The notes: a model not told the origin generated them from the letters alone. Shown: positions 201 to 41,671, numbered from the stretch's first letter. The stretch: 64,000 nt of DNA from an uncultured Actinomycetes bacterium (GCA_963767005.1 CAVYCN010000003.1:320001-384000), one strand, 5' to 3'. Translations and numbers: made by a program.

Positions 201-1220
201 CTAGGCCACCTTCCAGCAGCGCGCGTAGTGTCCGGGCGAGACCGCCACCATCTCCTGGTCGCTTTCAGTGCAGGCCGGCTCGGCTAGGGCGCAGCGCGGG
301 TAGAAGCGACAGCCGGGCGGCGGGTCTAGCAGGTTGGGCGGGTCGCCGGCGATCGAGCTCACCATCTCGCGGGTCTCGTGGATGTTGGGGAAGGCCTTGA
401 TGAGCTGCCGTGTGTAGGGGTGCGAGGGGGCCGTGAAGATGTCGGTCGTCGAGCCGGCCTCGACCACCTTGCCGGCGTACATGATGACGCCCTTGTCGCA
501 GGTCTCGGCCATGACCGAAAGATCGTGGCTGATGAGGATGAAGGAGAGCGCCAGCTCGTGGCGTAAGCGCTCGATCAGCTCGAGGATCTGGGCCTGGACC
601 ATGACGTCCAAGGCGGTGGTGGGCTCGTCGCCGATCACCAGCTTGGGGTTGCAGGCCAGGGCCATGGCGATCATCGCGCGCTGGCGCATGCCGCCGCTCA
701 TCTCGTGGGGGAACTCAGTCACGCGCTTGGGGTTGATGCCGACCAGATCGAAGAGCTCGCGGGCGCGGACCATCGCCTTGGCCTCGCTTAGGCCCTCGTG
801 GAGGATGATCGGCTCGGCGATCTGGCGGCCCACCTGCTGCACCGGGTTCAGGGCGTTCATCGCCCCCTGGAAGATGATCGAGACCTCCTTCCAGCGGATC
901 TTGGACATGCCGTACTCGGTGCGCTTGGCCAGGTTGCGACCGTCGAAGAGCACCTCGCCACTGACGATGCGGCCGTTTTCGGGTAAGAGCTTGAGGATCG
1001 CCAGGGCGGCCGTGGTCTTGCCGCAGCCGCTCTCGCCGGCCAGGCCCAGGCTGTGGCCGCTCTCCAACATGAAGCTCACGCCGTCGACGGCTTTGACGTC
1101 GCCCTCGCGCAGCTTGAAGTAGGCCTTCAGGTCGCGCACGTCGAGGATGCCCTCGTGGTCGATGCGGGCCGCGGCCTCCTTGGCGGGGGCGGCCGCGGCA
1201 GCGCCCGTGTGCGGGCTCAT
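201..1220 (-). CDS. Oligopeptide/dipeptide ABC transporter ATP-binding subunit (OppD-like)
   Basis: Walker A GESGCGKT, signature MSGGMRQR, Walker [10 protein letters not shown]-terminal HPYT...GCRFYPRC domain. Confidence 0.95.
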
Positions 1221-2632
1221 ATGACACCTCCCGGATCGCCGCCGACACTGCCGTCACGCACGACCGTCGCACTGTACAGGCCCGTGGGGATGGCGACGAC
1301 CGACTCGGTGTCGTCGCCGGGCCGTCCGCCGCTCTCCTCACGCTTGCGCAGCTTCGGATCGAGGATCTCGTCGAAAGCCGTGCCCATGAAGGTGAAGGCG
1401 AGCACGACCAGCACGATCGCGATGCCCGGCGGCAGCAGGTACCACCAGGCCGGCAGGCCGGCCGCGCCCGAGTCCCAGGCGTAATGCAGCATCGTGCCCC
1501 AGCTGAAGTTGAGCGGGTCGCCGAGGCCGAGGAACGACAGGGTCGTCTCGGACAGGATGGCGATCGCCACCACCAGGATGGTGTTGGCAAAGACGAGCGG
1601 GAAGACGTTCGGCAGGATGTGCTTGCGCATGATGTGCATGTCGCTCGAGCCGATCGCCCGCGAGCGCTCGATGAACTGCAGCTCGCGCACACGCATGGCG
1701 TCGGCGCGCACCACACGGGCGGTGCCGGGCCAGCTCGTGATGCCGATGATCAGCACGAGGATCATGTAGTTCTGACCCCAGGCCGCGACCAGCACCATGG
1801 CAAGCGGCAGCCAGGGGATCACGAGGAAGGCGTCGGTCAGACGCATCAGCACCTCGCTGAACCAGCCGTGGTAGTAGCCGGCGGCCACGCCGATACCGGC
1901 CCCCAGCACGGTCGAGATCGCCGTGGCGAACAGGCCGACCGCGAGCGAGATGCGCGAGCTCCAGATGAACTCGGCGAGCACCGACATGCCCTGCTCGGTG
2001 GTGCCGAACCAGTGGTAGTAGGACAGCGTCGGCGTCGCGAACGGGCTGCCGATCTGCGCCGTCGGGTCGAGCAGCGCGTGGTCGGCGAGGAACGGCGCGA
2101 GCAGCGCCATGAACAAAAAGACGAGCATGATGAACAGGCCGACCATGCCCTGCCAGTTGGCGCGGTACAGGCGCCAGATCTGGCGCGTGTTCCAGACCAT
2201 GAGCTCGGCGCGCTCGGGATTGGCGACGCCCCAGGCGTAGACGCAGGCGGCCAGCAGCACGATGACCACCGTCTGGAAGAGCCAGGCGAAGGTGGTGTCG
2301 CGGCCGTTCAGGGCGAGGCTGCCGTGAAGCACGCCGGCGCCGGCCGCGAACCACAGCAGGCAGTCGGCGCAGGCCGCGAGCAGCAGCAAGGGCAGCAGCC
2401 GCGAGCGCGACTGCCTGAAGAGCTGCGTCGCGCCGAAGACGCCCAGGGCGACGGCGAGAACGAGCGGCACGATCGGCGGGTAGTTGCCCACCGTCGGCGC
2501 CACGAAGCCGCCCAGCAGGTGGACGACGCCGGTGCGCAGCGGCCGGTCCTTGGGATAGGTGATGAGCGACACCAGCAGCCAGACGACCGGCGTCCAGACG
2601 TAGATCCAGGTGCGCAGACGATGGGGGATCAT
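1217..2632 (-). CDS. ABC transporter permease (OppC/DppC-like) with a long extra N-terminal membrane region
   Basis: WFGTT, EAA-like loop FIERSRAIGSS, HILPN, LSFLGLG, SWG motifs; 4-bp overlaps with both neighbours. Confidence 0.92.
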   Translation of the reverse strand: MIPHRLRTWIYVWTPVVWLLVSLITYPKDRPLRTGVVHLLGGFVAPTVGNYPPIVPLVLAVALGVFGATQLFRQSRSRLLPLLLLAACADCLLWFAAGAGVLHGSLALNGRDTTFAWLFQTVVIVLLAACVYAWGVANPERAELMVWNTRQIWRLYRANWQGMVGLFIMLVFLFMALLAPFLADHALLDPTAQIGSPFATPTLSYYHWFGTTEQGMSVLAEFIWSSRISLAVGLFATAISTVLGAGIGVAAGYYHGWFSEVLMRLTDAFLVIPWLPLAMVLVAAWGQNYMILVLIIGITSWPGTARVVRADAMRVRELQFIERSRAIGSSDMHIMRKHILPNVFPLVFANTILVVAIAILSETTLSFLGLGDPLNFSWGTMLHYAWDSGAAGLPAWWYLLPPGIAIVLVVLAFTFMGTAFDEILDPKLRKREESGGRPGDDTESVVAIPTGLYSATVVRDGSVGGDPGGVI

Positions 2633-3600
2633 GCCTTCACCCGCGGGTCGAGGTAGTAGTACATGATGTCGGCGATCAGGTTCGCGACGATCACGGCGAT
2701 GCTGCCCAGCAGGAACACGGCCTGCATGACCGGGTAGTCGCGCTGCATCATGGAGTCCCAGGAGAGCAGGCCGAGGCCGGGCCAGTTGAACACGGCCTCA
2801 GTGAGGATAGCGCCCGACATGACGAAGCCGATGTTCATCATGATGAGGGTGACCGTCGGCAGCATGGCGTTGGGCGCCACGTGCCGCCAGAGCACGTTCG
2901 AGTCGGACAGACCCTTGGCCCGCGCGGTCAGCACGTAGTCCTCTTTCATGACGCCGGTGAGCGAGCTGCGCACGATCAGGTGGTACTCGCCCATGTAGGT
3001 GATGGCGAACGTGAAGGCCGGCAGGAACAGGTGGTGCAGCAGCGCGCCGAACTGGTCGAGCCAGCCCGAGTAGGTCGCGCCGGGGTCGTACATGCGTCCG
3101 ACCGGGAACCAGCGTAACCACGTCGCGAAGATCATGATGAAGATCAGACAGATCCAGAAGGTCGGCGCGGAGTACATGACCATGCCGGCGTTGGTGGTCG
3201 CCACGTCGAACCGGCTGTTTCGTCGCCAGCCGGCAAAGACCCCGGTTATCACCCCGATGATGGTCGCGATGATGGTGCCCGTGCCGACGAGCAGGACGGT
3301 CGGCCAGATGCGCTCGCCGACGACCTGAGCCACCGGGCGCTTCTGCGCGAAGGAGTCGCCGAACTTGAGGCGGACGGTGTCGCCCCAGTAGAGCACGAAC
3401 TGCTCCCAGAGCGGCTTGTTCAGGTGGAAGTTGGCGCGCTGCTTGGCCATCGCGTCCATCGAGAAGCGACCCTTGGGCACCAGCAGGCGGGCCGGGTCGC
3501 CGGGCAGGATACGAAAGAGCACGAAGTTGAACGACGCGATGAGAGCGATGGTGAGCAGGGCGTTCATGATCTTGCGGGCGAAATAGCGCCGCTTATCCAC
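2629..3600 (-). CDS. ABC transporter permease (OppB/DppB-like)
   Basis: LPGDPA, EDYVLTARAKGL, EAVFNWPGLG, RDYPVMQ, YYLDPRV motifs. Confidence 0.95.
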   Translation of the reverse strand: MDKRRYFARKIMNALLTIALIASFNFVLFRILPGDPARLLVPKGRFSMDAMAKQRANFHLNKPLWEQFVLYWGDTVRLKFGDSFAQKRPVAQVVGERIWPTVLLVGTGTIIATIIGVITGVFAGWRRNSRFDVATTNAGMVMYSAPTFWICLIFIMIFATWLRWFPVGRMYDPGATYSGWLDQFGALLHHLFLPAFTFAITYMGEYHLIVRSSLTGVMKEDYVLTARAKGLSDSNVLWRHVAPNAMLPTVTLIMMNIGFVMSGAILTEAVFNWPGLGLLSWDSMMQRDYPVMQAVFLLGSIAVIVANLIADIMYYYLDPRVKA

Positions 3601-3973: not shown

Positions 3974-5812
3974 CTACTCCTCGACCGCGCGCGGCCGCGA
4001 GCGCCGCCGCAAGGCGAAGACGCACGCGACGACGATGGCCACGATGACCGCAGCGCCGACGATCCACGCCGTGGAGGCCGCACCTCGGGTCGCCCTCGCC
4101 GCGACCGGCCGCAGGTTCACGTAACTATCGACGTTGCCGGCGGTATAGAAGGCCGGCCCCCTGCCGTCGCCGACCCGTGTCCAGCCCGTCCATCTGGCCG
4201 TGTCGTAGGCCTCGAAGAAATCCGGGTAGGTCAGCACGATCCACGGCGTCTGCTGGTACATGATCTCCTGCATGCGCCGGATGAGCGCCTGCCTGGCAGT
4301 GGTGTCGAGGGCGGCCGCCTGCTGCGCGCAGAGCCTGTCGTACTGCGGGTCTGACCAGCTCGGTTCGTTCGTGCCGCCGATCTGCGCCGTGGTCTCGGCC
4401 GTCAATGTCTCGCCGGGGTCGAGGTAGCCCAGCCAACTGTTGACGTACAGGTCGAAGTCTGGCGTGTAGGTGCTGCCCCTGAAGTTCCACAGACGGGCGT
4501 TCAGGGCGCCGGGGTCGAGCACGCTGAAGTCGATCCTGATGCCGAGCTTCTGCAGCCAGCCGGTGATCAGCTTGCCCTCGATCTGCGAGGGATCGCTGTC
4601 GGTTGTGGCCCAGAGGCGCAGGACGATCGGCTTGCCCCGCCGGTCGACACGCACGCCCCCGCGCAGCGGGTAGCCCGCGGCGGTGAGGAGCTGGCCCGCC
4701 TTGGCCAGATCGAACGCGTAGAGCTGGCCGACGGACGGCTGCCAGTGGTAGTCGGGATCGACCCAGGTGTGGGGCGGGAGGATGGTCGTGCCGGGCATCG
4801 CATAGCCCTGGAAGGCGATCGCGCAGAGCCGCTGCCGGTCGATCGCGTAGTTGAGTGCGTTGCGGAACCGCCAGTCGCGCAGCACCGGGTTACCGAGCGA
4901 CGCCTTGCCCGCGTAGCAGTTGAAATTCAGGTACTCCCAGTTGTAGTAGGGGTAGGACAGCGCGGTGAGGCCGGGTGTCGAGGACAGGGTCTTGAACTGG
5001 GCGACCGGGATGCCCCAGGCGGCATCGAGAGCGCCGCTCTTCAGGTCGGCCGTCATGGTATCGGCGTCCTCGTAGGTCTCGAAGAAGATCTCGTCGACGG
5101 CCGGCCGCTTGCCCCAGTAGTAGGGGTTGCGGTCCAGGCGCAGGTACGAGCCCTTCACCCACTTGGCCACAGTGAACGGCCCGCTGCCAACAATCGGCAC
5201 GGCGTTGGTGAAGCTCGTGGTGGCCGCCTGCGGACTGACCTTCTTCCAGACGTGCTCCGGCACGATCGGCACGAAGATCTTCTCCATGTCCGCCTTCGGG
5301 CTCGAGCACGTGATGCGCACCGTGGTGGCATCGAGCGCCGTGGCGCCGAGAACGCCCGCCGTCGAGATCGCCATGTTGAGCATCTTGTTCTTGACAATGT
5401 AGTCGTAGGTGAAGGCGACGTCGGACGCGGTCAGCGGCTGGCCATCCGACCACCGGACGTTGGGCCGGATGTGGATGGTCCAGACCTTGCCGTCGGCCGA
5501 CAGCCCTCCGTTGGCCTTGGTCGGGAACTCGCTCGCGAGGTCGAGCGCGGGCCGCGACGTCGTGCCGAATCCGAACAGGAAGTCGTAGTTGATGGACCAG
5601 ATCTCGTAGTCCTGGTTCTGCCACCCGATGAAAGGGTTGAGGTTGTCGGGCTCGGTGGTCCAGCCGATGTGCAAGGCGACGCCGCCCGTGCTCGGCGCGG
5701 GCGAAGGGCTCGCCGCGAGCGCCTCGACCGACCCCACCGTGACCCCGGCGAGGAGCACCGAGACCGCGACGAGAGCGGCTCGCCGCAGACCGCCTGAGAA
5801 TCTCCTGTCCAT
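3974..5812 (-). CDS. Family-5 (peptide/nickel-type) ABC substrate-binding protein with signal peptide and C-terminal transmembrane anchor
   Basis: PDNLNPF, WSDGQPLTASDVAFT, GSGPF, RNPYYWG, FRNALNYAIDR motifs; ends in a hydrophobic helix followed by RRRSR. Confidence 0.92.
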   Translation of the reverse strand: MDRRFSGGLRRAALVAVSVLLAGVTVGSVEALAASPSPAPSTGGVALHIGWTTEPDNLNPFIGWQNQDYEIWSINYDFLFGFGTTSRPALDLASEFPTKANGGLSADGKVWTIHIRPNVRWSDGQPLTASDVAFTYDYIVKNKMLNMAISTAGVLGATALDATTVRITCSSPKADMEKIFVPIVPEHVWKKVSPQAATTSFTNAVPIVGSGPFTVAKWVKGSYLRLDRNPYYWGKRPAVDEIFFETYEDADTMTADLKSGALDAAWGIPVAQFKTLSSTPGLTALSYPYYNWEYLNFNCYAGKASLGNPVLRDWRFRNALNYAIDRQRLCAIAFQGYAMPGTTILPPHTWVDPDYHWQPSVGQLYAFDLAKAGQLLTAAGYPLRGGVRVDRRGKPIVLRLWATTDSDPSQIEGKLITGWLQKLGIRIDFSVLDPGALNARLWNFRGSTYTPDFDLYVNSWLGYLDPGETLTAETTAQIGGTNEPSWSDPQYDRLCAQQAAALDTTARQALIRRMQEIMYQQTPWIVLTYPDFFEAYDTARWTGWTRVGDGRGPAFYTAGNVDSYVNLRPVAARATRGAASTAWIVGAAVIVAIVVACVFALRRRSRPRAVEE

Positions 5813-5822
5813 GATCCCCCCT

Positions 5823-6881
5823 TCAGCTCAGCAGAGCCCTGGCGATAGGCTGCAGGTCGCGATCGGCGGGCATCTCGTCGAGACCGATCAGGGCGAGGAC
5901 GACCGCCTTCTGGAGGTGCTTCCGGTTGGCGGCCATCGGCCAGACGATCGACGCCGCTCCGTCGATGACCTCGTCGGTCACCTCGTCGCCCCTCACCGCC
6001 GGCAGGCAGTGCATGAAGCGCGCGCCCGGCTTGGTCTTGGCCCAGAGTTCGCGATTCACCTGGAAACGGCGGTTCTTGCGTCGCATCTCGGCCACGTGCT
6101 CCGGGGACTCCGCCCACCACCACAGCGAGGTGTAGACGTAGTCGGCGGTCACAACGGCTTCCTCGGGATCGTCGGTGGTGAGCAGGTGCGTGTCCCACAG
6201 GCCGCAGTTGTCGTCGACCGCCCGGCGGACGGCGTCCGGGAACGCGAAGTGTTCCGGCGTCGCCACGTTCACGTTCATGCCGAGGCGGGAGAACGTCAGT
6301 GCCACCGAGTCGCACATGCAGTCGCCGTTGCCGAGGAACGCCATCGTGGCGCCCTCGAGGGGTCCGCCCGCCTCGATGATCGTCATCGCATCGCTCAACG
6401 ACTGGATGGGATGGTCGTAGTCGCCGGCCTCGCCGTTGATCACGGGGATGGTGGCCGCGTCGGCCAGCTCCTGGAGCACGGCGACCGTCTGCGTGCGTGC
6501 CATGAGCGCGTCGAGGAACTGCGACAGGGCCTTGGCCGTGTCGGCCACGCTCTCGCGGCCGGGCAGGTGCATCTCGCCGGGGCGCAGGTAGACGGCGTGC
6601 CCGCCGAGCTCGGTCATCCCGGTCTCGAAGCTCACCCGCGTGCGGGTGGAGGGATCGTCGAACAGCATCCCGAGGTGATGCGCGGGCAGGAACGGAGTAA
6701 GCCGCTTGCGACCGCGGAGCGCCTTGAGCTCGATCGCCAGCTTGATCAGGTCGAGAAGCTCGTCCCGCGTGTAGGCCTGGTCCGTGACGTAGTCACGACC
6801 GCGGAACCGCGCAAGCGGCGGTAGCGGTGCGGCCAGGATCGACTCGAGCGTCGTTGCCGACGCCGCCGCGGCGTGCGCCAT
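5823..6881 (-). CDS. Ornithine/putrescine carbamoyltransferase-family protein (putrescine-transcarbamylase-like, atypical substrate loop)
   Basis: STRTRVSFE carbamoyl-phosphate motif, HPIQ, FMHCLPAVRGDEV; YTSLWWW in place of TDVWxSMG; ATG 6881 follows a GAGGGG SD. Confidence 0.9.
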   Translation of the reverse strand: MAHAAAASATTLESILAAPLPPLARFRGRDYVTDQAYTRDELLDLIKLAIELKALRGRKRLTPFLPAHHLGMLFDDPSTRTRVSFETGMTELGGHAVYLRPGEMHLPGRESVADTAKALSQFLDALMARTQTVAVLQELADAATIPVINGEAGDYDHPIQSLSDAMTIIEAGGPLEGATMAFLGNGDCMCDSVALTFSRLGMNVNVATPEHFAFPDAVRRAVDDNCGLWDTHLLTTDDPEEAVVTADYVYTSLWWWAESPEHVAEMRRKNRRFQVNRELWAKTKPGARFMHCLPAVRGDEVTDEVIDGAASIVWPMAANRKHLQKAVVLALIGLDEMPADRDLQPIARALLS

Positions 6882-6933
6882 GTCGACCACCCCCCTCGGA
6901 AGTTCGGTCCCGGTGCCTCAACGTCGGGCCGAT

Positions 6934-6976
6934 TTGATTGGTCGTACAATAAACCATCGCGCACAGGACATGTCAA
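6934..6976 (-). promoter_or_regulatory. Sigma70-type promoter (TTGACA 6976-6971) overlapping a putative TetR operator (6934-6953)
   Basis: ttgattggtcgtacaataaa is 17/20 identical to the palindrome at 7768-7787; AT-rich patch in GC-rich DNA. Confidence 0.65.
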
Positions 6977-7030
6977 GTGAGTGGTCAAGGGCGGCTCGGA
7001 GAGACGGCGAAGTGAGGTGGCGGGCGGCGG

Positions 7031-7741
7031 CTACTCCGCGCCCAGACGGTCGAGGCGGTCGATCAGCATCCGACGCCACAACCCGAAGGTGCCGTCGTGG
7101 TCGAACCGTGCCCGGTCGGCCGCGAACTGCACGGCGAGCCCTTCGACGACCGCGACGCTCAGGGCCGCGAGACGATCCAGATCGGCGGCCTCCGCGCCCG
7201 CGCTCGCGCCCTCGAGGCAGCGGCGATCGAGCTCCCGGGATGAGCGATACGACTCGGCCAAGCGCGCCCGCATGACGTCGTCGTGCATGATGTGGGGCAG
7301 CAGCTCGTAGAAGGCGCGAAAGCCACGCCAGTCGGCGGAGATCTCGCGCTGGGCGTCGAGCAGGGCGGCGACGCGGGCGCCGGGGTCGGCGATGGCCGCA
7401 AGCTCGCCGCGCAGGCCAACGTCCTCGTCCTCCATGAGCGAGTCGACCACCGCCTGCACGAGGCCGCGCTTGTTGCCGAAGTAGTAGGCGACCAGAGCCC
7501 GGAACTCGCCCGACTCCTCCTCGATCTCCTTCAGGGTGAAGTGCTGATAGCCCTTCTCGGTGAGAATGCGCTTGGCGGCCTCGAGGATGCGCTGCGCCGT
7601 CGGAGACGCCGGCCGGGACCGCTCGGACCCACCCGCCTCTCGCTTGTCTGCCGGCTGCCTGGCCAGTTGTCTCGCTCCCCTTCGTCGCGACCTTCCCATC
7701 TTACCTCGCCGTGGCTCAGGACCCCGCGTGACGATGGCCAC
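7031..7741 (-). CDS. TetR/AcrR family transcriptional regulator (alternative start ATG 7699)
   Basis: TAQRILEAAKRILTEKGY...ALVAYYFGNKRGL helix-turn-helix; divergent from aguA. Confidence 0.9.
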   Translation of the reverse strand: MAIVTRGPEPRRGKMGRSRRRGARQLARQPADKREAGGSERSRPASPTAQRILEAAKRILTEKGYQHFTLKEIEEESGEFRALVAYYFGNKRGLVQAVVDSLMEDEDVGLRGELAAIADPGARVAALLDAQREISADWRGFRAFYELLPHIMHDDVMRARLAESYRSSRELDRRCLEGASAGAEAADLDRLAALSVAVVEGLAVQFAADRARFDHDGTFGLWRRMLIDRLDRLGAE

Positions 7742-7767
7742 CGCCGGCGCCTATCTGGCTCATGGCG

Positions 7768-7787
7768 TTGATTTATCGTACAATCAA
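7768..7787. promoter_or_regulatory. Putative TetR operator in the tetR/aguA divergent promoter
   Basis: TTGATT-N8-AATCAA palindrome, near-repeated at 6934-6953. Confidence 0.65.
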
Positions 7788-7833
7788 ACCCGCTTCCGCG
7801 ATAGTCCGGCACTCGCCCACGAGGGGAGTTTCC

Positions 7834-8910
7834 ATGCAGATCGACGACACGCAGGCCGTCGGCACCGGCGCAGCCGAGGAGCTGCCGGCCGGCGCCGGCT
7901 TTCGCATGCCGGCCGAATGGGCGCCGCACGAGCGCTGCCTGATGGCGTGGCCGTCTTCGGCGCGCGCAAACGTCTGGGGCGATCACTACATGCTCGCCCA
8001 GGCGTCGTATGCCGCGGTGGCGCACGCGATCGCCGCGTTCGAGCCCGTAGTCATGGTCGCACGGCCCGACGACGCGGATGCCGCGCGCAGCTACTGCGGC
8101 CGCGACATCGAGGTGCTCGAGCTGCCCATCGATGACTCCTGGCTGCGCGACAGCGGCCCGATCTTCGTGGTGGGGCCGGGCGGCGAGCGCGCGGTGGCGG
8201 ACTTCCGCTTCAACTCCTGGGGCGAGCGTTACCTGCCGTACGACCTCGACGCCCGGATCGGCGAGCGGCTCAGCGAGCACTTCGGCGTGCGACGGTTCGC
8301 CGCTCCCCTCGTGCTCGAGGGTGGGTCGATCACCGTCGACGGCGAGGGCACCCTCGTTACAACCGAAAGCTGCCTGCTGCATCCGAGCCGCAACCCCCAG
8401 TTGACCAGGGACCAGATCGAGCGACACCTCATGGACTACCTGGGCGTCACGAAGGTCGTCTGGCTGAAGGCCGGCCTCGGCCTCGCCGAGGACCCCGACA
8501 CCGACGGTCACGTCGACGGCGTCGCCTTCTTCGCCGGGCCGGGCCGCATCGTGCTGCACATGGTGCGCGACCCCCAACACCCCGACTACGAGAACTTCCG
8601 CGAGAACCGCCGCCGTCTCGAGACGACCGACGCCCGCGGACGCGAGATCGAGGTCATCGAGATGGACGCGCGTAGCCGGCCCGTCGTGGTGGGCGGCGTC
8701 AACATCGTCGAGACCTACATCAACAGCTACTTCGCAAACGGCGGGCTGGTCGTGCCGACGGCAGGCACGGGCGACGACGAGGCTGCCCTGGAGCTCCTGC
8801 ACACGATGGTCCCGGACCACGAGGTCGTCGGAGTGCCCTGCCCCGTCGTCGCCTACGGCGGGGGCGGCATCCACTGCATCACGCAGCAGATGCCCGCGAC
8901 CGCCTCCTGA
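7834..8910 (+). CDS. aguA: Agmatine deiminase family protein
   Basis: FRMPAEWAPH, DDSWLRDSGP, FNSWG, LEGGSI, DTDGHVD, GGGGIHCITQQ (catalytic Cys); SD GAGGGGAG. Confidence 0.92.
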   Translation: MQIDDTQAVGTGAAEELPAGAGFRMPAEWAPHERCLMAWPSSARANVWGDHYMLAQASYAAVAHAIAAFEPVVMVARPDDADAARSYCGRDIEVLELPIDDSWLRDSGPIFVVGPGGERAVADFRFNSWGERYLPYDLDARIGERLSEHFGVRRFAAPLVLEGGSITVDGEGTLVTTESCLLHPSRNPQLTRDQIERHLMDYLGVTKVVWLKAGLGLAEDPDTDGHVDGVAFFAGPGRIVLHMVRDPQHPDYENFRENRRRLETTDARGREIEVIEMDARSRPVVVGGVNIVETYINSYFANGGLVVPTAGTGDDEAALELLHTMVPDHEVVGVPCPVVAYGGGGIHCITQQMPATAS

Positions 8911-8937
8911 CCCGGGTCTGCAGCGCCAGAAGAAGAC

Positions 8938-8974
8938 GGGCAGGGGAGGGCTGCTGCGCAGCCCTCCCCTGCCC
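8938..8974. terminator. Hairpin between convergent aguA and methyltransferase genes
   Basis: 17-bp perfect stem gggcaggggagggctgc/gcagccctcccctgccc; followed by TCTTCTT on the minus strand. Confidence 0.7.
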
Positions 8975-8991
8975 ATGTCGCGTCCGGTGTC

Positions 8992-9798
8992 CTATTCGAG
9001 CAGCCCCGCGCGATGGGCCTTGAGGTAGCGGCCGCAGAAGCTGTCCTCGTTGCGCAGCGCCTCGATCGCCTTGACCGTCGCCATCATCTGCTTGTTGCGC
9101 ACGTCGAGCACGGCGCCGTCGATGCCGATGCCGGCGCACATGGCCACGAACGTGCGGTTGAGCAGCGGCCGGTTCGGCAGCCCGAAGCTGACGTTGCTGA
9201 GGCCGCCCGTCGAGCGCACGCCCGGCAGGTTGGCCTTGATGAGGGCCAGGGTGCCCATGGTCACGAGGGCCGCGGTCGAGTCGGCCGAGACGGTCATGAC
9301 CAGCGGGTCGAACCACATGTCCTCGGCGGGCAGGCCGGCGGCGGCGAGCTTGTCGTGGAGCATCTTGGCGACCGCGAAGCGGTCTTCGGGGGTGCAGGGG
9401 ATGCCCTCGTCGTTCAGGCAGAGCGCCACCACGGGGCACCTGTACTTCTCGACCAGCGGCAGCACGGTGTCGATGCGGCTCTGCTCGCCGCTGATCGAGT
9501 TGATGTGCGGCACGGTGCCGTCGTTTGCGATCGCGGCCTCGACGCCGGCCTGCAGGGCGGCCGGGCTGGCCGAGTCGATCATGAGCTGCTTGTCGGTCAC
9601 ACTGCGCACGGTGGCGATCAGCCACAGCAGGTCCTCGACCTCGTTGCCGCCGGCGACGCCGCCGTTCACGTCGAGGATGTTGGCGCCGGCTTCGACCTGG
9701 TCGGTCGCCAGCGTCTTGATGAAGTCGGCATCGCGCGACTGGATGGCCTCGCCGACCTGCTTGCGTGTCCCGTTGATCGATTCGCCTACCAACAGCAT
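8992..9798 (-). CDS. Methyltetrahydrofolate:corrinoid methyltransferase (AcsE/MetH pterin-binding, DHPS-fold)
   Basis: MLLVGESING, QVEAGANILDVN, LMIDS, INSISGE, FDPLV, GLSNVSFGLPNR motifs. Confidence 0.88.
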   Translation of the reverse strand: MLLVGESINGTRKQVGEAIQSRDADFIKTLATDQVEAGANILDVNGGVAGGNEVEDLLWLIATVRSVTDKQLMIDSASPAALQAGVEAAIANDGTVPHINSISGEQSRIDTVLPLVEKYRCPVVALCLNDEGIPCTPEDRFAVAKMLHDKLAAAGLPAEDMWFDPLVMTVSADSTAALVTMGTLALIKANLPGVRSTGGLSNVSFGLPNRPLLNRTFVAMCAGIGIDGAVLDVRNKQMMATVKAIEALRNEDSFCGRYLKAHRAGLLE

Positions 9799-37870: not shown

Positions 37871-38347
37871 TCAGGAGCCCGCCTCACCCTCCCAGTAGTC
37901 GACCGCGCTCTCGCGGCGCACCATCAGGTCGTCGTCGCGGTTGCCGGTCCAGATGGCGACCTTGCCGCTGTCGGGGTAGACGGTCGCGGCCGGGTGGCAG
38001 ACCGTCGACCACATGAGGATACGCACTGTCTCGGCCGTCTCGTTGCGCACGCCGTGAGCGCCGGCCGGCCCCGTCGGAAAGCATACGACGTCCCAGGGCT
38101 CGAGGACGTCCTCGCCTTCGGGGTGACGCAGCGTCGGCCGGCCTTCGAGCACGAGCAGCCACTCCTCCTCGGCGTACTCGTAGTGATAGGGGCAGACGGC
38201 CTGACCGGGCGGCAGCTCGTACACGCTCGCGCCGAGCTGGGCCGCACCGAGCAGGGGACCAAAACGGAACGTGCCGCCGCGAAAGCCGGCGGGGTCGTCG
38301 CTGTCGTAGATGAACCGGGGCCGGGCGATGTTGACGTGAGGCGGCAT
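37871..38347 (-). CDS. Cupin domain protein
   Basis: YELPPGQAVCPYHYEYAEEEW...FPTGPAGAH...YPDSGK. Confidence 0.88.
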   Translation of the reverse strand: MPPHVNIARPRFIYDSDDPAGFRGGTFRFGPLLGAAQLGASVYELPPGQAVCPYHYEYAEEEWLLVLEGRPTLRHPEGEDVLEPWDVVCFPTGPAGAHGVRNETAETVRILMWSTVCHPAATVYPDSGKVAIWTGNRDDDLMVRRESAVDYWEGEAGS

Positions 38348-38390
38348 GGGCGGGTCATACCCGCCCATGCCGCCCGCCTGACCGTCAGCG

Positions 38391-39863
38391 TCAGGCGTCG
38401 GCCGTGCTCTCCGACCGACGACCGGCGCCGGCGTCGGGCAGCACCGGGGCGTCGGGGGCGCCGGCGCGGTGCGCGAGCCACCAGCCGACCACCATGCTGA
38501 TCGCCGTGCCGCCGGCCGTGACGATCCAGTACGTCACCTTGGGCGTGCCGTCGGGCACGAGATAGAAGAACAGCACGATGGCGAAGACCACGCCGGCCGT
38601 CGTCAACGCCACGGAGAGCCACGCCCCGGCCCGCCCGCCCGGCACCGTGTAGGGGCGCTTCGTGCCCGGCTGCGAGCGCCGCAGCAGGAGCAGCGCCGGG
38701 AACATGAGCAGGTACGGGAACAGGAAGACGATCGAGCTCAGGGCGAAGATGCTCCAGAACACGCTCTCCCTCGTCGCGAAGAAGGAGTAGTTGATGACCG
38801 TGATGGCGGTCGAGAGCACCCCCATGAGCACGAAGGCGTAGTCGGGCGTGGTGAAGCGCCGGTTGGTGTGGCCGAACACGCCCGGCGCGGCGCGGTCGAG
38901 GCCGGTCGAGGCCATGCTGTGGTTGGCGCCGATCGACCAGGTGACCATGTTGCCGATCAGCGTGAAGAGCAGCAGCACGATGAAGACGTCGTAGACCGTC
39001 CCGGCGGCGCCGCCCAGGACGGCGTGGAACGAGAGCTTCATGGCGTCGGCCATGCCGGTCACGATCGAGAGGTTCTTGAGCGGGATCGCCGCGAGGATGC
39101 CGAAGTTGCCGACGAGCTGGGCCACGACGATGATCACGCCGGCCAGCAGCAGCATGCGGGGGATGTCACGCCGCGGGTTGCGCACCGCGCCGGCCGCCGA
39201 GCTCATGAGTTCGAAGCCCATGAAGTTGTAGACGATGATCGGCAGGAAGCTCCAGTTCGCCCCGAACGACGGCTTCCAGGCCGACGCCGCAAACGAGTTG
39301 GCGAGGCCGTGATGCACGGCGAAGGCGAGGCCCATGGCGCCGAGCATGACGAGCACGCCGACCTTGAGCGCCGCGCTTGCGCTGTTCACCCACTTGCTGA
39401 GCGACAGCGGCAGGACGCCGATCAGCACCACGAGCCAGATGAGGGCGATCACGATGATCTCCGCCCAGGTGTTGCTCATGCCGCCCCAGAAAGCCGCCGA
39501 GAGCGTGCCGGCGAAGATGACGAAGACCGCCGGCGCCCAGTAGGCGACGTTCACCCAGTACAGCCAGGCGGTGAACGTGCCCCAGCGCGGTCCGTAGGCC
39601 TCGCGCACCCAGACGTAGATGCCGCCCTCGTCGGGCCAGCCGCTGCCGAGCTCCGCGGTGATCAGCCCGTAAGGCACGAAAAAGATCACCGCGAACAGGA
39701 TGAAGAGCGTGATGCTCTGGACGCCGATCGCCGACGACGTCGCGACGGTGTCCAGCGTGATCATCGCCGAGACGGCGAAGAGGGTCATCGAGACGATGCC
39801 CATGGTGCGCGGCTGGTCGGCGAGCGTCACCCCGGCCGCGATGCCTCTGCTTTCTGTCGCCAT
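38391..39863 (-). CDS. APC family permease, agmatine/putrescine antiporter (AguD)-like
   Basis: LDTVATSSAIG, ELGSGWPDEGGIYVWV, WLYWVN, YNFMGFE, NPRRDIP; directly downstream of a transcarbamylase. Confidence 0.88.
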   Translation of the reverse strand: MATESRGIAAGVTLADQPRTMGIVSMTLFAVSAMITLDTVATSSAIGVQSITLFILFAVIFFVPYGLITAELGSGWPDEGGIYVWVREAYGPRWGTFTAWLYWVNVAYWAPAVFVIFAGTLSAAFWGGMSNTWAEIIVIALIWLVVLIGVLPLSLSKWVNSASAALKVGVLVMLGAMGLAFAVHHGLANSFAASAWKPSFGANWSFLPIIVYNFMGFELMSSAAGAVRNPRRDIPRMLLLAGVIIVVAQLVGNFGILAAIPLKNLSIVTGMADAMKLSFHAVLGGAAGTVYDVFIVLLLFTLIGNMVTWSIGANHSMASTGLDRAAPGVFGHTNRRFTTPDYAFVLMGVLSTAITVINYSFFATRESVFWSIFALSSIVFLFPYLLMFPALLLLRRSQPGTKRPYTVPGGRAGAWLSVALTTAGVVFAIVLFFYLVPDGTPKVTYWIVTAGGTAISMVVGWWLAHRAGAPDAPVLPDAGAGRRSESTADA

Positions 39864-39915
39864 TGTGGACCTCCTCTTGCGACCTGCCGTGGTACCCGCC
39901 CGACGACCGCGGCTC

Positions 39916-40971
39916 CTAGCGTACGAGCGCCCGCCCGATGGCGGCGAGCTCGGGGTCGTCGGGCGGTGTGTCGATGCCGATGAGCGCGAGCAGCAGCGCC
40001 TTCTGGAAGTGCTTGCGGTTCTCCGCCTCGTCGAGCACGATCGAGAACGGCGCGTCGAGGATCGCGTCGGTCATCTCCTCGCCGCGCACGGCCGGCAGGC
40101 AGTGCATGAACACCGCTCCCGGCCTGGTGTGACGCCAGAGCGCCTCGTTCACCTGATAGGGCGTGAGCTCGCGGCGCAGCTTGCGCACCTCGTCGTCGGG
40201 CTGCATCCACCACCAGCCGACGGTGAACACGACGTCGGCCTGCGAGACTGCCGCCACCGCGTCGTCTGTCAGCGTGAGGGTCGCGCCGCTGCGCGCGCAG
40301 TTGAGCCGCACGAGGGCGGCCGTCTCGTCGGTCATCTGGTGCCCGGCCGGGCCGGCCATCACCATGCTGCTGCCCAGGCGTGTCATGGTGAGCGCGACGG
40401 AGGTGCCCATCGCGTCAGCGCACTTGCCGACGAAGGCGCAGGTCAGGCCGCTCACCGTACCGAAGCGCTCGCGGATCGTGAGCGCGTCGGTCATCGACTG
40501 CACGGGGTGGTCGTAGTCGTCGGTGAGCCCGTTGATGACGGGCACGGTGGCCGCCGCGGTGAGCTCGGCCAGCGTCGAGTGGTAGGCCGTGCGCGCCATG
40601 ATGGCGTCGACCAGGCGGCTGATCACACGAGCGGTGTCGGCCACCGTCTCGTGGCCGCCCAGGTGGATCTCGCCGGGCCGCAGGTACTGGGCGTGGCCGC
40701 CGAGCTCGGTCATGCCCGCCTCGAAGCTGATGCGCGTGCGGGTCGACGGATGCTCGAAGATCATCGCGAGGGTGCGTCCCTCCAGGAACGGCGTCAGCGG
40801 GCGGCGCCGGTACGCGGCCTTCAGCGCGACCGCGAGGTCGAGCAGGCCGGTGAGCTCCTCGGCCGTGAACTCCTGATCGGTGAAGAAGTGGCGGCCTCGC
40901 AGCGACGCCAGGCTGCCGGGGGCGACCGGCTCGCTCACCGGCCGACGGACTGTCTCGCTCATGCTCGCCAT
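39916..40971 (-). CDS. Second putrescine-transcarbamylase-like protein (atypical substrate loop)
   Basis: STRTRISFE, GEIHLGGHETVADTARVISRLVDAIMAR, HPVQ, FMHCLPAVRGEE, DEAENR; FTVGWWW loop. Confidence 0.9.
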   Translation of the reverse strand: MASMSETVRRPVSEPVAPGSLASLRGRHFFTDQEFTAEELTGLLDLAVALKAAYRRRPLTPFLEGRTLAMIFEHPSTRTRISFEAGMTELGGHAQYLRPGEIHLGGHETVADTARVISRLVDAIMARTAYHSTLAELTAAATVPVINGLTDDYDHPVQSMTDALTIRERFGTVSGLTCAFVGKCADAMGTSVALTMTRLGSSMVMAGPAGHQMTDETAALVRLNCARSGATLTLTDDAVAAVSQADVVFTVGWWWMQPDDEVRKLRRELTPYQVNEALWRHTRPGAVFMHCLPAVRGEEMTDAILDAPFSIVLDEAENRKHFQKALLLALIGIDTPPDDPELAAIGRALVR

Positions 40972-40978
40972 CACCTCT

Positions 40979-41036
40979 TGGTTAAACGGACATTTATCAC
41001 TGACTCTTATATGACCGTTTAACCAGATGCTGTCAA
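40979..41036 (-). promoter_or_regulatory. Promoter (TTGACA 41036-41031) with a large inverted repeat / paired operators
   Basis: tggttaaacggacat-N17-atgaccgtttaacca; AT-rich patch between tetR and the transcarbamylase gene. Confidence 0.65.
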
Positions 41037-41065
41037 GCGCTGACCGGCCGGCGAGCGCCTCGTCT

Positions 41066-41671
41066 TCAGTCCCGCGATAGTCCCAGGTAGTGGTCGATGA
41101 CGGCGCGCCAGGCGCGCCAGGCACGGGCGTGGTCGAAGCCGTCGGGGTCGAGCGCGCGCTGGATGGCGAGCCCCTCGACCACCGCGATCGTCACGGCCGC
41201 GAGCGCCTCGGCGTCGTCGAGGTCGGTCGGCGCCGCGTCGAGAAACTCGGCGTCGATGCGCCGGAAGAGGCGATACTCGTCGGCGAAGCGCCGGCGCACC
41301 TCCGGGTCGCGCAGGGCCTGGGGCAGCAGCTCGTAAAGCTGGCGATTCACGCGGTCGCGGGCCGAGACGCGCTCCTGCCAGTCGAGGAAGCGCCGCGTGC
41401 GCAGCGGGCCTTCGGCCTCGTCGCGGACCGTCTCGGCGAGCCCCGCCCCGGGATCATGGAAGACGCCGTCGACGAGCGCGGCGATCAGGCCCGCCTTGCC
41501 ACCGAAGTAGTAGGACACGAGCGCGCGGTTGGCGCCCGACTCGGCTTCGATCGCGGCCATCGTGAGCTCGGCGAAGCCGCGTTCGGCGAGGATCGTCTGG
41601 GCCGCCGCGAGGATGCGCTGGGCCGTCGGCGGCAGTGGTCGGGCGGGGCCGAGTGGCGGCTCGGCGGCTAT
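41066..41671 (-). CDS. TetR/AcrR family regulator (paralog of 7031-7741); likely ATA start
   Basis: PTAQRILAAAQTILAERG...ESGANRALVSYYFGGKAGL; shares YELLP and VVEGLAxQ with the first TetR. Confidence 0.85.
   Translation of the reverse strand: MAAEPPLGPARPLPPTAQRILAAAQTILAERGFAELTMAAIEAESGANRALVSYYFGGKAGLIAALVDGVFHDPGAGLAETVRDEAEGPLRTRRFLDWQERVSARDRVNRQLYELLPQALRDPEVRRRFADEYRLFRRIDAEFLDAAPTDLDDAEALAAVTIAVVEGLAIQRALDPDGFDHARAWRAWRAVIDHYLGLSRD

Follow-up and report, generated by a model that had tools for sequence, protein, structure and literature searches.

What does a transcarbamylase act on when it lacks the residues that shape the amine site of putrescine transcarbamylase (PTC)? The question arises from a 64,000-nucleotide stretch of DNA of an uncultured Actinomycetes bacterium (GCA_963767005.1 CAVYCN010000003.1:320001-384000), here called the window, in which the gene for a PTC-like transcarbamylase (P0001) lies beside aguA, the gene for an agmatine-deiminase-family enzyme. 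A sequence-only reading had proposed to explain the locus by three consecutive tryptophans (WWW) in the substrate loop of P0001, with a neighboring AcsE-like methyltransferase as a speculative pathway partner. As judged from the alignments, the novelty in P0001 is a predicted remodelling of the amine pocket, from which Asp227 and Gln164 of PTC are gone and which has a new acid at position 163; the predicted unit is aguA, tetR, the transcarbamylase gene and the gene for an ATP-binding cassette (ABC) binding protein. This unit is likely to be a co-regulated module for a substrate other than plain agmatine or putrescine. The features of P0001 and its paralogue P0002 on which the argument turns are the following.

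5823..6881, minus strand: P0001, Asp-less PTC-like transcarbamylase of subtype A; likely start ATG 6881, with the open reading frame extendable to GTG 6890
6114..6134, minus strand: 230-loop YTSLWWW of P0001, with Ser in place of PTC Asp227; WWW occupies 6114-6122
6312..6332, minus strand: GNGDCMC segment of P0001; Asp190 corresponds to PTC Thr163, Cys191 to Gln164 and Asn188 to Asp161
6423..6437, minus strand: NGEAG segment of P0001; Glu154 corresponds to PTC Met125, a putrescine-contacting position
39916..40971, minus strand: P0002, Asp-less PTC-like paralogue of subtype B, 51% identical to P0001

Counted from ATG 6881, P0001 has 352 amino acids, the same as the database copy of the protein, and its translation bears out the motifs reported in the sequence-only reading, namely STRT, HPxQ (here HPIQ), HCLP and the WWW of YTSLWWW; the paralogue likewise contains FTVGWWW, together with STRT, HPVQ and HCLP. 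Two further claims of that reading, the loss of the loop Asp in both proteins and the alteration of the GDxxN/GDATQ region, were upheld: pairwise alignment places Ser255 of P0001 on Asp227 of the PTC of E. faecalis, P0002 has Val for Asp227 and Ala for Gln164, and the altered region reads GNGDCMC in P0001 and GKCADAM in P0002. According to section 5 of PMC4581275, the putrescine site of PTC is shaped by Asp227 and Gln164, and Met125 is described as touching putrescine in PMC3282769. All 77 sequences of the outgroup, which consists of the ornithine transcarbamylases (OTC) and PTCs among the matches listed in a generic-motif scan of genome contigs (80 loci, 77 of them with a complete translation), retain Asp227, so its loss in P0001 and P0002 is unusual. 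Neither protein has Lys two residues before STRT (P0001 has Asp and P0002 has His), an absence that PMC3282769 associates with substrates devoid of an alpha-carboxylate. The substrate-site changes in P0001 occur at several positions together. Comparison of the gene with four orthologues gives dN/dS of 0.13-0.29, and this purifying selection argues against decay. P0001 is predicted to hold the second nitrogen of its substrate by Asp190, possibly with Glu154 and Asp79, in place of Asp227 and Gln164.

The pocket columns were scored on 120 rows, that is, P0001, P0002 and 118 homologs, with P0025 excluded. The loop Asp is missing from 90 of these rows; Asp or Glu is found at position 163 in all 90 and in none of the 30 Asp-keeping rows. 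The same 90 rows have lost the pair of Asp161 and the loop Arg, a salt bridge in human OTC. On the tree, the 163/227 exchange maps to a single change, that is, one remodelling event. By motif, the 120 best homologs comprise subtypes A (YTSLWWW, including P0001), B (TVGWWW, including P0002), C (TVLWWW, with DCLP) and F (TLLWWW), along with subtypes D and E, which keep the Asp. In a quick tree of 57 sequences, the lineage is one clade (SH-aLRT 100) in which subtype D is the sister of the others; its placement between the PTC and OTC groups received an SH-aLRT of 64. The lineage is compact, with two 50% clusters far above the remaining matches, and was matched in 64 of the 89 genomes of the window's order (E <= 1e-80) versus 1 of 400 sampled genomes from elsewhere in the phylum; WWW is found in all 30 loci among the lineage matches listed in the order genomes. 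Most homologs with names carry the label Thermoleophilia or unplaced Actinomycetota and an OTC annotation, which makes the host probably a member of Thermoleophilia.

Compared with the Asp-keeping relatives, subtype A has gained acids at three PTC positions (50, 125 and 163) and, as a rule, also after WWW. The Asp at 163 and the Glu at 125, which the sequence-only reading did not notice, favor a relocated cation over the neutral-chain pocket that it had offered as an option. The Glu, found in 23 rows of subtype A (one further row has Gln), also bears on an improbable alternative, in which a shorter diamine unit (1,3-diaminopropane or an aminopropyl end) would be held by Glu154 nearer to the reactive nitrogen. 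The contact of Met125 with putrescine is consistent with such a role, as is a precedent in sections 5 and 8 of PMC4581275: the diaminopropionate and diaminobutyrate transcarbamylases (DPTCase and DBTCase) swap the same Asp, located in the 240s loop, for Thr or Ser and gain an Asp near the reactive site. These enzymes resemble P0001 in having lost the loop Asp and gained an acid elsewhere in the site (section 8), but have HDLP and (T/S)RWQ(T/S)(T/M)G and serve antibiotic biosynthesis, whereas P0001 has HCLP, WWW and a deiminase partner. Furthermore, subtypes B and C have Leu at 125, and the AguA encoded beside P0001 keeps the residues of the four-carbon tunnel and the distal acid, all of which speak against a shorter substrate.

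The tryptophans themselves have a longer history. Trp229 occupies its alignment column in 74 of the 77 outgroup sequences, and the complete WWW occurs in two of them, from a Bellilinea locus and a Nanopelagicales locus, both with Asp227 retained and aguA close by, and with arcC, the carbamate kinase gene, also present in the latter. The window's genome encodes a YTDCWWW enzyme on contig C4, within a full transcarbamylase-arcC-aguA operon. The 230-loop signature of PTC, (Y/W)(G/W)(V/L/I)X, permits WW at 230-231 (PMC3282769, section 13); WW of P0001 and P0002 fits the first two places, and the third is a mismatch in both (Ala and Met, respectively). Given that WWW is present in PTCs that keep the Asp, it is older than the Asp loss. 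Thus, the three-tryptophan cation-pi cage, put forward by the sequence-only reading as the novel feature, was rejected: Trp229 is near-universal, WW falls within the PTC signature and WWW occurs in ordinary aguA/arcC operons.

The transcarbamylase gene is embedded in a cassette with the following features and borders.

201..3600, minus strand: resident opp-type permease/ATPase genes, probably serving the binding protein; an operator copy lies before oppB in the related genome G004
3974..5812, minus strand: family-5 ABC substrate-binding protein, directly downstream of the transcarbamylase
6934..6953, strand not applicable: 20-bp palindrome upstream of the transcarbamylase, 53 bases before its start, a predicted TetR operator
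7031..7741, minus strand: TetR/BetI-type regulator, exact start uncertain
7768..7787, strand not applicable: second palindrome copy, between the divergent tetR and aguA
7834..8910, plus strand: P0003, agmatine-deiminase-family enzyme (AguA) of the short-loop type; likely start ATG 7834
8936..8976, minus strand: terminator-like hairpin after acsE, one cassette border
8992..9798, minus strand: AcsE-like methyl-tetrahydrofolate (methyl-THF):corrinoid methyltransferase, a resident core gene judged to lie outside the cassette

The palindrome has two matches in the window and none in 100 shuffles, and recurs at the corresponding places in related cassettes; a weight-matrix search of the genome detected no other site, the next score being 15 versus a training minimum of 26.8. 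The exact pattern is present in 9 of the 89 genomes of the order, and the reversed control in none. The aguA gene is found beside P0001, where the sequence-only reading had located it, and is divergent from the transcarbamylase gene, with tetR, unmentioned there, in between; the pairing is backed by the common palindrome and by the gene content of related loci. The subtype-A loci (n=39: the window, 7 genomes and 31 metagenome contigs, many of them short) are related and non-independent. Among the 14 loci of at least 10 kb, aguA, the binding protein gene and tetR are each present in 14, MttB in 9, acsE in 1 and arcC in 0; no APC/NCS1 transporter was found in these 14, whereas an APC antiporter is present in 7 of 14 canonical loci.

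P0003 retains the catalytic His250, Asp252 and Cys372 and the distal-amine Asp246; according to section 14 of PMC6447857, the Asp at this place, four positions ahead of the catalytic His, contacts the terminal amine where the channel opens. With 327 bits, P0003 is below the TIGR03380 cut-off of 381.8, and it belongs to a clade distinct from the fermentative AguAs. The Gly that follows the catalytic Asp of AguA might have pointed to a wider channel for the leaving group, as PPAD Cys239 would suggest by analogy; it was discarded as uninformative because the position varies freely in other actinobacterial AguAs. The structural-sequence matches of the binding protein were weak and gave no hint of a ligand.

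Could P0001 be an ordinary PTC isoenzyme, with Asp190 doing the job of Asp227 and the ABC importer scavenging agmatine at low concentration? The PTC profile TIGR04384 is the best one for P0001 and P0002, at 305.5 and 338.2 bits, respectively, and the AlphaFold monomer model of P0001 (mean pLDDT 85), which shows a transcarbamylase fold and an additional helix at the C-terminus, retrieves only the PTC of E. faecalis among its top 10 Foldseek matches (TM ~0.8); in VIA-align, PTC and OTC are tied (Z 36-40) and the last helix of the model is left unaligned with PTC helix 13. The AguA active site is canonical, and related short-loop AguAs in other Actinomycetota are often paired with aguB. However, the profile scores are far under the cut-off of 500 bits, several substrate-site positions are altered together, and the genome also carries a full canonical PTC-arcC-aguA operon with its own tetR, the YTDCWWW operon of contig C4, plus a third paralogue with its own regulator. 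Given this complete operon, P0001 is probably not a duplicate function, and the isoenzyme explanation appears quite unlikely.

The borders of the cassette bear on the AcsE-like gene, which is located where the sequence-only reading had placed it and whose product passes NF005719 but not the NF040758 cut-off. The gene is single-copy in the window's genome and present in 80 of the 89 genomes of the order; neither aguA nor a transcarbamylase gene was found within 1.5 kb of any of 29 other acsE loci, and the genome weight-matrix search detected no cassette operator at acsE. In five relatives, acsE is directly followed by oppB; one genome, G008, represents an empty site, with a 376-bp gap that matches both cassette borders in the window. 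Given this gap and the acsE-oppB order, the cassette is placed between acsE and the opp permease genes. In G004 and G010, where the cassette is on another contig, an operator copy is located just after the acsE stop and, in G004, ahead of oppB. The binding protein probably uses the resident opp permeases. Accordingly, acsE was rejected as a cassette member, being a core gene that lacks an operator and has relatives without the cassette beside it, and the role of pathway partner that the sequence-only reading had speculatively given it was abandoned. A scheme that joins a three-tryptophan cage for a quaternary amine to the adjacent acsE as dedicated methyl acceptor can draw on the adjacency of acsE and the cassette here and in one close metagenomic relative (L178), and on the operator copies after acsE in G004 and G010; given the age of WWW, its presence in ordinary PTC operons, the empty site, and the position of these operator copies downstream of acsE and, in G004, ahead of oppB, we consider it scarcely credible. 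AcsE may act in trans as a general methyl acceptor. The genome encodes formyl-THF synthetase, and acetyl-CoA synthase was not found in it.

Which substrate, then, would the module serve? Our tentative preference, possible rather than probable, is that the TetR-linked set imports and degrades an agmatine analogue with an alkylated, still charged second nitrogen, N-methylation being the most likely modification; the N-methyl identity, taken by itself, is equally tentative, and guanidino-polyamines are a close rival. The genome search for MttB-family methyltransferases that the sequence-only reading had suggested returned 41 matches, 7 of them with TAG at the pyrrolysine position, and the genome has two pylB copies. 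In 9 of the 14 long subtype-A loci, the cassette has a TAG-containing MttB gene as a neighbor, in most cases with a corrinoid gene behind it; in another genus, the cassette is flanked on one side by a TAG-containing MttB gene and its corrinoid gene and on the other by non-pyrrolysine MttB genes that are co-oriented. For comparison, the chance expectation for an MttB gene within 8 kb in the window's genome is 12%. Moreover, of 12 wider loci without a transcarbamylase, 8, including one from the window's own genus, have a P0003-type AguA gene within an MttB cluster. Of the sequence-only proposal of a modified-substrate enzyme, then, a PTC-derived protein with a changed amine site and a paired AguA stands and a methylated substrate is plausible, whereas the tryptophan cage and the role of acsE do not stand.

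Several observations weigh against N-methylation. The MttB-flanked loci are related and probably reflect one inherited arrangement, and MttB is missing from 5 of the 14 long subtype-A loci, including that of the window. The MttB gene directly downstream of the cassette in relatives has near-orthologues in 48 of the 89 genomes, cassette genes are within 1.5 kb in only 7 of its 30 best loci, and no MttB gene with the operator was detected in the window's genome, which also contains an MttB-KamA-RamA cluster without the cassette. No paper that mentions dimethylagmatine, trimethylagmatine or arginine betaine emerged from a literature search in which subscription journals were mostly outside the coverage. 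With regard to the pocket, the single change on the tree does not amount to statistical co-evolution of positions 163 and 227, and the putative pocket role of position 163 is deduced from its adjacency to Gln164 in the sequence. In addition, no arcC was found in the cassette-bearing genomes G004 (95% complete) and G041 (87%). Finally, what sets subtype A apart from its Asp-keeping sisters is a gain of acids rather than aromatics, a pattern that a polyamine fits at least equally well.

Under this polyamine alternative, which we regard as unlikely on balance, the substrate would be a guanidino-polyamine (N1-aminopropylagmatine, guanidino- or bis-guanidino-homospermidine) and P0001 a spermidine- or homospermidine-type transcarbamylase, in which the space freed by the loss of Asp227 and Gln164 would let the tail out and further amines would be bound by the additional acids of subtype A. 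Such compounds are natural and have specialized deiminases, as described in section 8 of PMC13625781; the importer has a peptide-type binding protein rather than the APC antiporter of canonical loci, and a second AguA paralogue accompanies many subtype-A cassettes. Nevertheless, no polyamine-synthesis genes were seen in the annotated neighborhoods, guanidino-polyamines are known as intracellular intermediates, and the MttB neighborhoods would be left unexplained.

The other subtypes call for a further comparison. All six subtype-C loci contain aguA and none contains arcC; subtype-B loci have aguA in 1 of 13 and arcC in none; the Asp-keeping subtype-D loci have arcC in 13 of 14 and aguA in 12 of 14. 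In the subtype-C-type loci L059, L062, L063, L064 and L068, two or three distinct AguA paralogues are accompanied by an aguB hydrolase and opp genes, as well as by a PuuE-like deacetylase or an isochorismatase, and in four of these loci the transcarbamylase has DCLP for HCLP; one of the paralogues has Gly for the His before the catalytic Cys, another His for the tunnel Trp, and the former lacks the distal acid. In L184 (1222-8100), two different Asp-less transcarbamylases, two AguAs, tetR and arcC form one co-oriented run. Such loci, in which up to three AguA paralogues occur and two of these lack the distal acid, are what would be expected if the substrate carried a distal guanidinium, ureido or acyl group (arcaine-type bis-guanidines or N-acyl-agmatines) processed by sequential AguAs and transcarbamylases, and amide hydrolases (isochorismatase, PuuE-like, CocE/NonD, ArgE/DapE, C45, aguB) recur near the loci. 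For subtype A, however, the distal acid kept in P0003 and the acids gained in P0001 are at odds with a neutral group, and in G004 the cassette holds the only AguA found and the only transcarbamylase of the lineage. This explanation is a better fit to subtypes B and C than to A and, overall, rather unlikely.

A creatine/N-carbamoylsarcosine route, prompted by isochorismatase and FAD-oxidase neighbors, and a small-amine (methylurea) route were put aside, since acids and smaller residues have been added to the pocket and the long tunnel is retained in AguA.

Returning to the preferred N-methylated agmatine analogue, the route would start with import via the binding protein and the resident opp permeases, as suggested by the observed gene order. 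AguA, with the observed family assignment and catalytic residues, would then convert the guanidine of the putative substrate to a ureido group with release of ammonia, and the transcarbamylase, whose carbamoyl-phosphate site is intact, would phosphorolyse the ureide to the free amine and carbamoyl phosphate, a direction that we assume because of the pairing with a deiminase. Carbamoyl phosphate might be drained by a carbamate kinase encoded elsewhere or by biosynthesis. Speculatively, methyl groups, if any, would be stripped by MttB-family and corrinoid systems elsewhere and passed to THF via the general AcsE.

The absence of carbamate kinase noted in the sequence-only reading is true of the window but not of the genome, which contains two arcC copies, both outside the window; arcC is present in 77 of the 89 genomes of the order. 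Phosphorolysis is unfavorable and normally coupled to carbamate kinase, as stated in PMC6022934, and subtype-A loci carry arcC in 1 of 39 cases. The scarcity of arcC in subtypes A, B and C versus D, together with the two cassette-bearing genomes in which it was not found, would suit an enzyme working in the carbamoylating direction, to modify or detoxify an amine with carbamoyl phosphate outside catabolism. We consider this highly improbable: the enzyme has its palindrome in common with the deiminase and the importer, the sister group resides in catabolic operons, and arcC is frequent in the order. With import driven by ATP, salvage of nitrogen or amines may be a more important role of the module than the gain of ATP.

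A broader proposal, which we put forward as unlikely in its full extent, is a lineage-wide radiation with at least five amine-pocket subtypes that would obtain carbamoyl phosphate from N-methylated agmatine-type guanidines and hand the methylated amine to corrinoid methyltransferases. If true, this radiation would join guanidine fermentation to methylotrophy in pyrrolysine-using actinobacteria and add substrates to a family in which only three catabolic transcarbamylases are firmly established, according to PMC6022934. A methylated substrate would also mean an unrecognized source of methylamine and ATP for a family of uncultured actinobacteria.

Compared with the PTC of E. faecalis (AguB/PtcA; EC 2.1.3.6; PDB 4A8H, 4A8P, 3TXX; TIGR04384), P0001 has ~40% identity, the same fold, STRT, HPxQ and HCLP, no Lys before STRT, no SMG loop, the pairing with an agmatine deiminase, and a 20-residue C-terminal extension (helix 344-354 in the AlphaFold model). 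It differs in the replacement of Asp227 by Ser (Val in P0002), Gln164 by Cys (Ala), Thr163 by Asp and, in subtype A, Met125 by Glu, and in the loss of Asp161 and the loop Arg; the helix-13 signature (L/F/V/I)xx(F/Y/L/M/V)(L/I/M) is unmatched in the last 22 residues of P0001 and P0002, the profile cut-off is not reached, the clade is separate, an ABC binding protein takes the place of the antiporter and the locus lacks arcC. With OTC (EC 2.1.3.3), P0001 and P0002 share the fold and the carbamoyl-phosphate site but not DxxxSMG, the Lys of FxKxSTRT or GDxNN; P0002 passes TIGR00658, the OTC profile. By sequence criteria, P0001 and P0002 are predicted to fall outside both PTC (Asp227/Gln164, third loop position, helix-13 signature, profile cut-off) and OTC.

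The agmatine deiminase system (aguB-aguD-aguA-aguC) of E. faecalis and S. mutans similarly combines deiminase, transcarbamylase, transporter and regulator; here, aguA is divergent and from another clade, import is by an ABC system, the kinase is encoded elsewhere in the genome and the amine site is changed. The enzyme of the C4 operon shares the WWW loop and is 51% identical. The diagmatine and aminopropylagmatine iminohydrolases of PMC13625781, compared by description, are likewise AguA-family enzymes specialized for agmatine analogues extended at the second nitrogen; they are biosynthetic and work with hydrolases, and no transcarbamylase partner is described for them in the part of that source used here. 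Shi et al. (PMC4581275, section 5) left it to be established whether sequence-variant PTCs are true PTCs. No paper on Asp-less WWW transcarbamylases came up in a literature search that mostly did not extend to subscription journals. The defined, conserved and mostly OTC-labelled set of variants makes the question of their substrate directly testable; a single genome provides both the canonical enzyme, as a control, and two remodelled enzymes, and a possible inducer screen could be built on the TetR-palindrome pair.

The paralogue P0002 is part of a subtype-B unit at 37871-41670 that consists of tetR, P0002, a GadC-like transporter gene and a gene that was labelled cupin-like by sequence inspection, with these features in addition to P0002.

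38391..39863, minus strand: APC-family GadC-like transporter, downstream of P0002
40979..41025, strand not applicable: inverted repeat upstream of P0002, unlike the cassette palindrome; its half-sites recur before other subtype-B genes
41066..41670, minus strand: TetR-type regulator upstream of P0002, start approximate

On contig C3 of the window's genome (G000), at 29.1-30.6 kb (L017:9141-10641), a fourth paralogue of the WW type is encoded behind an aguA fragment with an internal stop; its carbamoyl-phosphate motif is degenerate and its branch long, and it is probably in decay. A regular OTC-type gene is present on contig C2. Further divergent PTC-like lineages with unusual loops are represented by P0128, P0129, P0136, P0167, P0195 and P0249, among which P0129 is independently Asp-less. 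In 10 of the 14 subtype-D loci, which are canonical agmatine operons (L070, L157, L161-L165, L168, L172), a histone-deacetylase-family gene lies beside tetR, which suggests acetylated agmatine or putrescine as an input.

Among the MttB-family proteins, loss of the residue equivalent to MtgB Arg312, which MtgB-type enzymes are reported to use for the substrate carboxylate, was considered as a specific sign in the MttB encoded downstream of the cassette and was rejected, given that 31 of 32 aligned MttB-family proteins in the genome also lack this Arg; the general lack hints at many non-betaine methylamine substrates. A conserved MttB run on contig C4 (106-118 kb; L208-L210) ends in a lysine-2,3-aminomutase-like gene and a RamA-like activator gene (labels by inspection), which suggests methyl-lysine use. 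On contig C3 (~69.5-83 kb; L018:8868-19763), the gene for a different transcarbamylase, which has Lys before STRT and a YGNTWHSMA loop, precedes a DDAH/ADI-like gene and an MtmB gene split into two open reading frames, with related copies in L020:8741-13954 and L019; about 8 kb from this transcarbamylase, behind a corrinoid gene and an MttB gene, lies a 1.17-kb arcC copy 99.8% identical to that of the C4 operon. This region is a candidate for a methylarginine or methylguanidine route feeding a methylamine methyltransferase.

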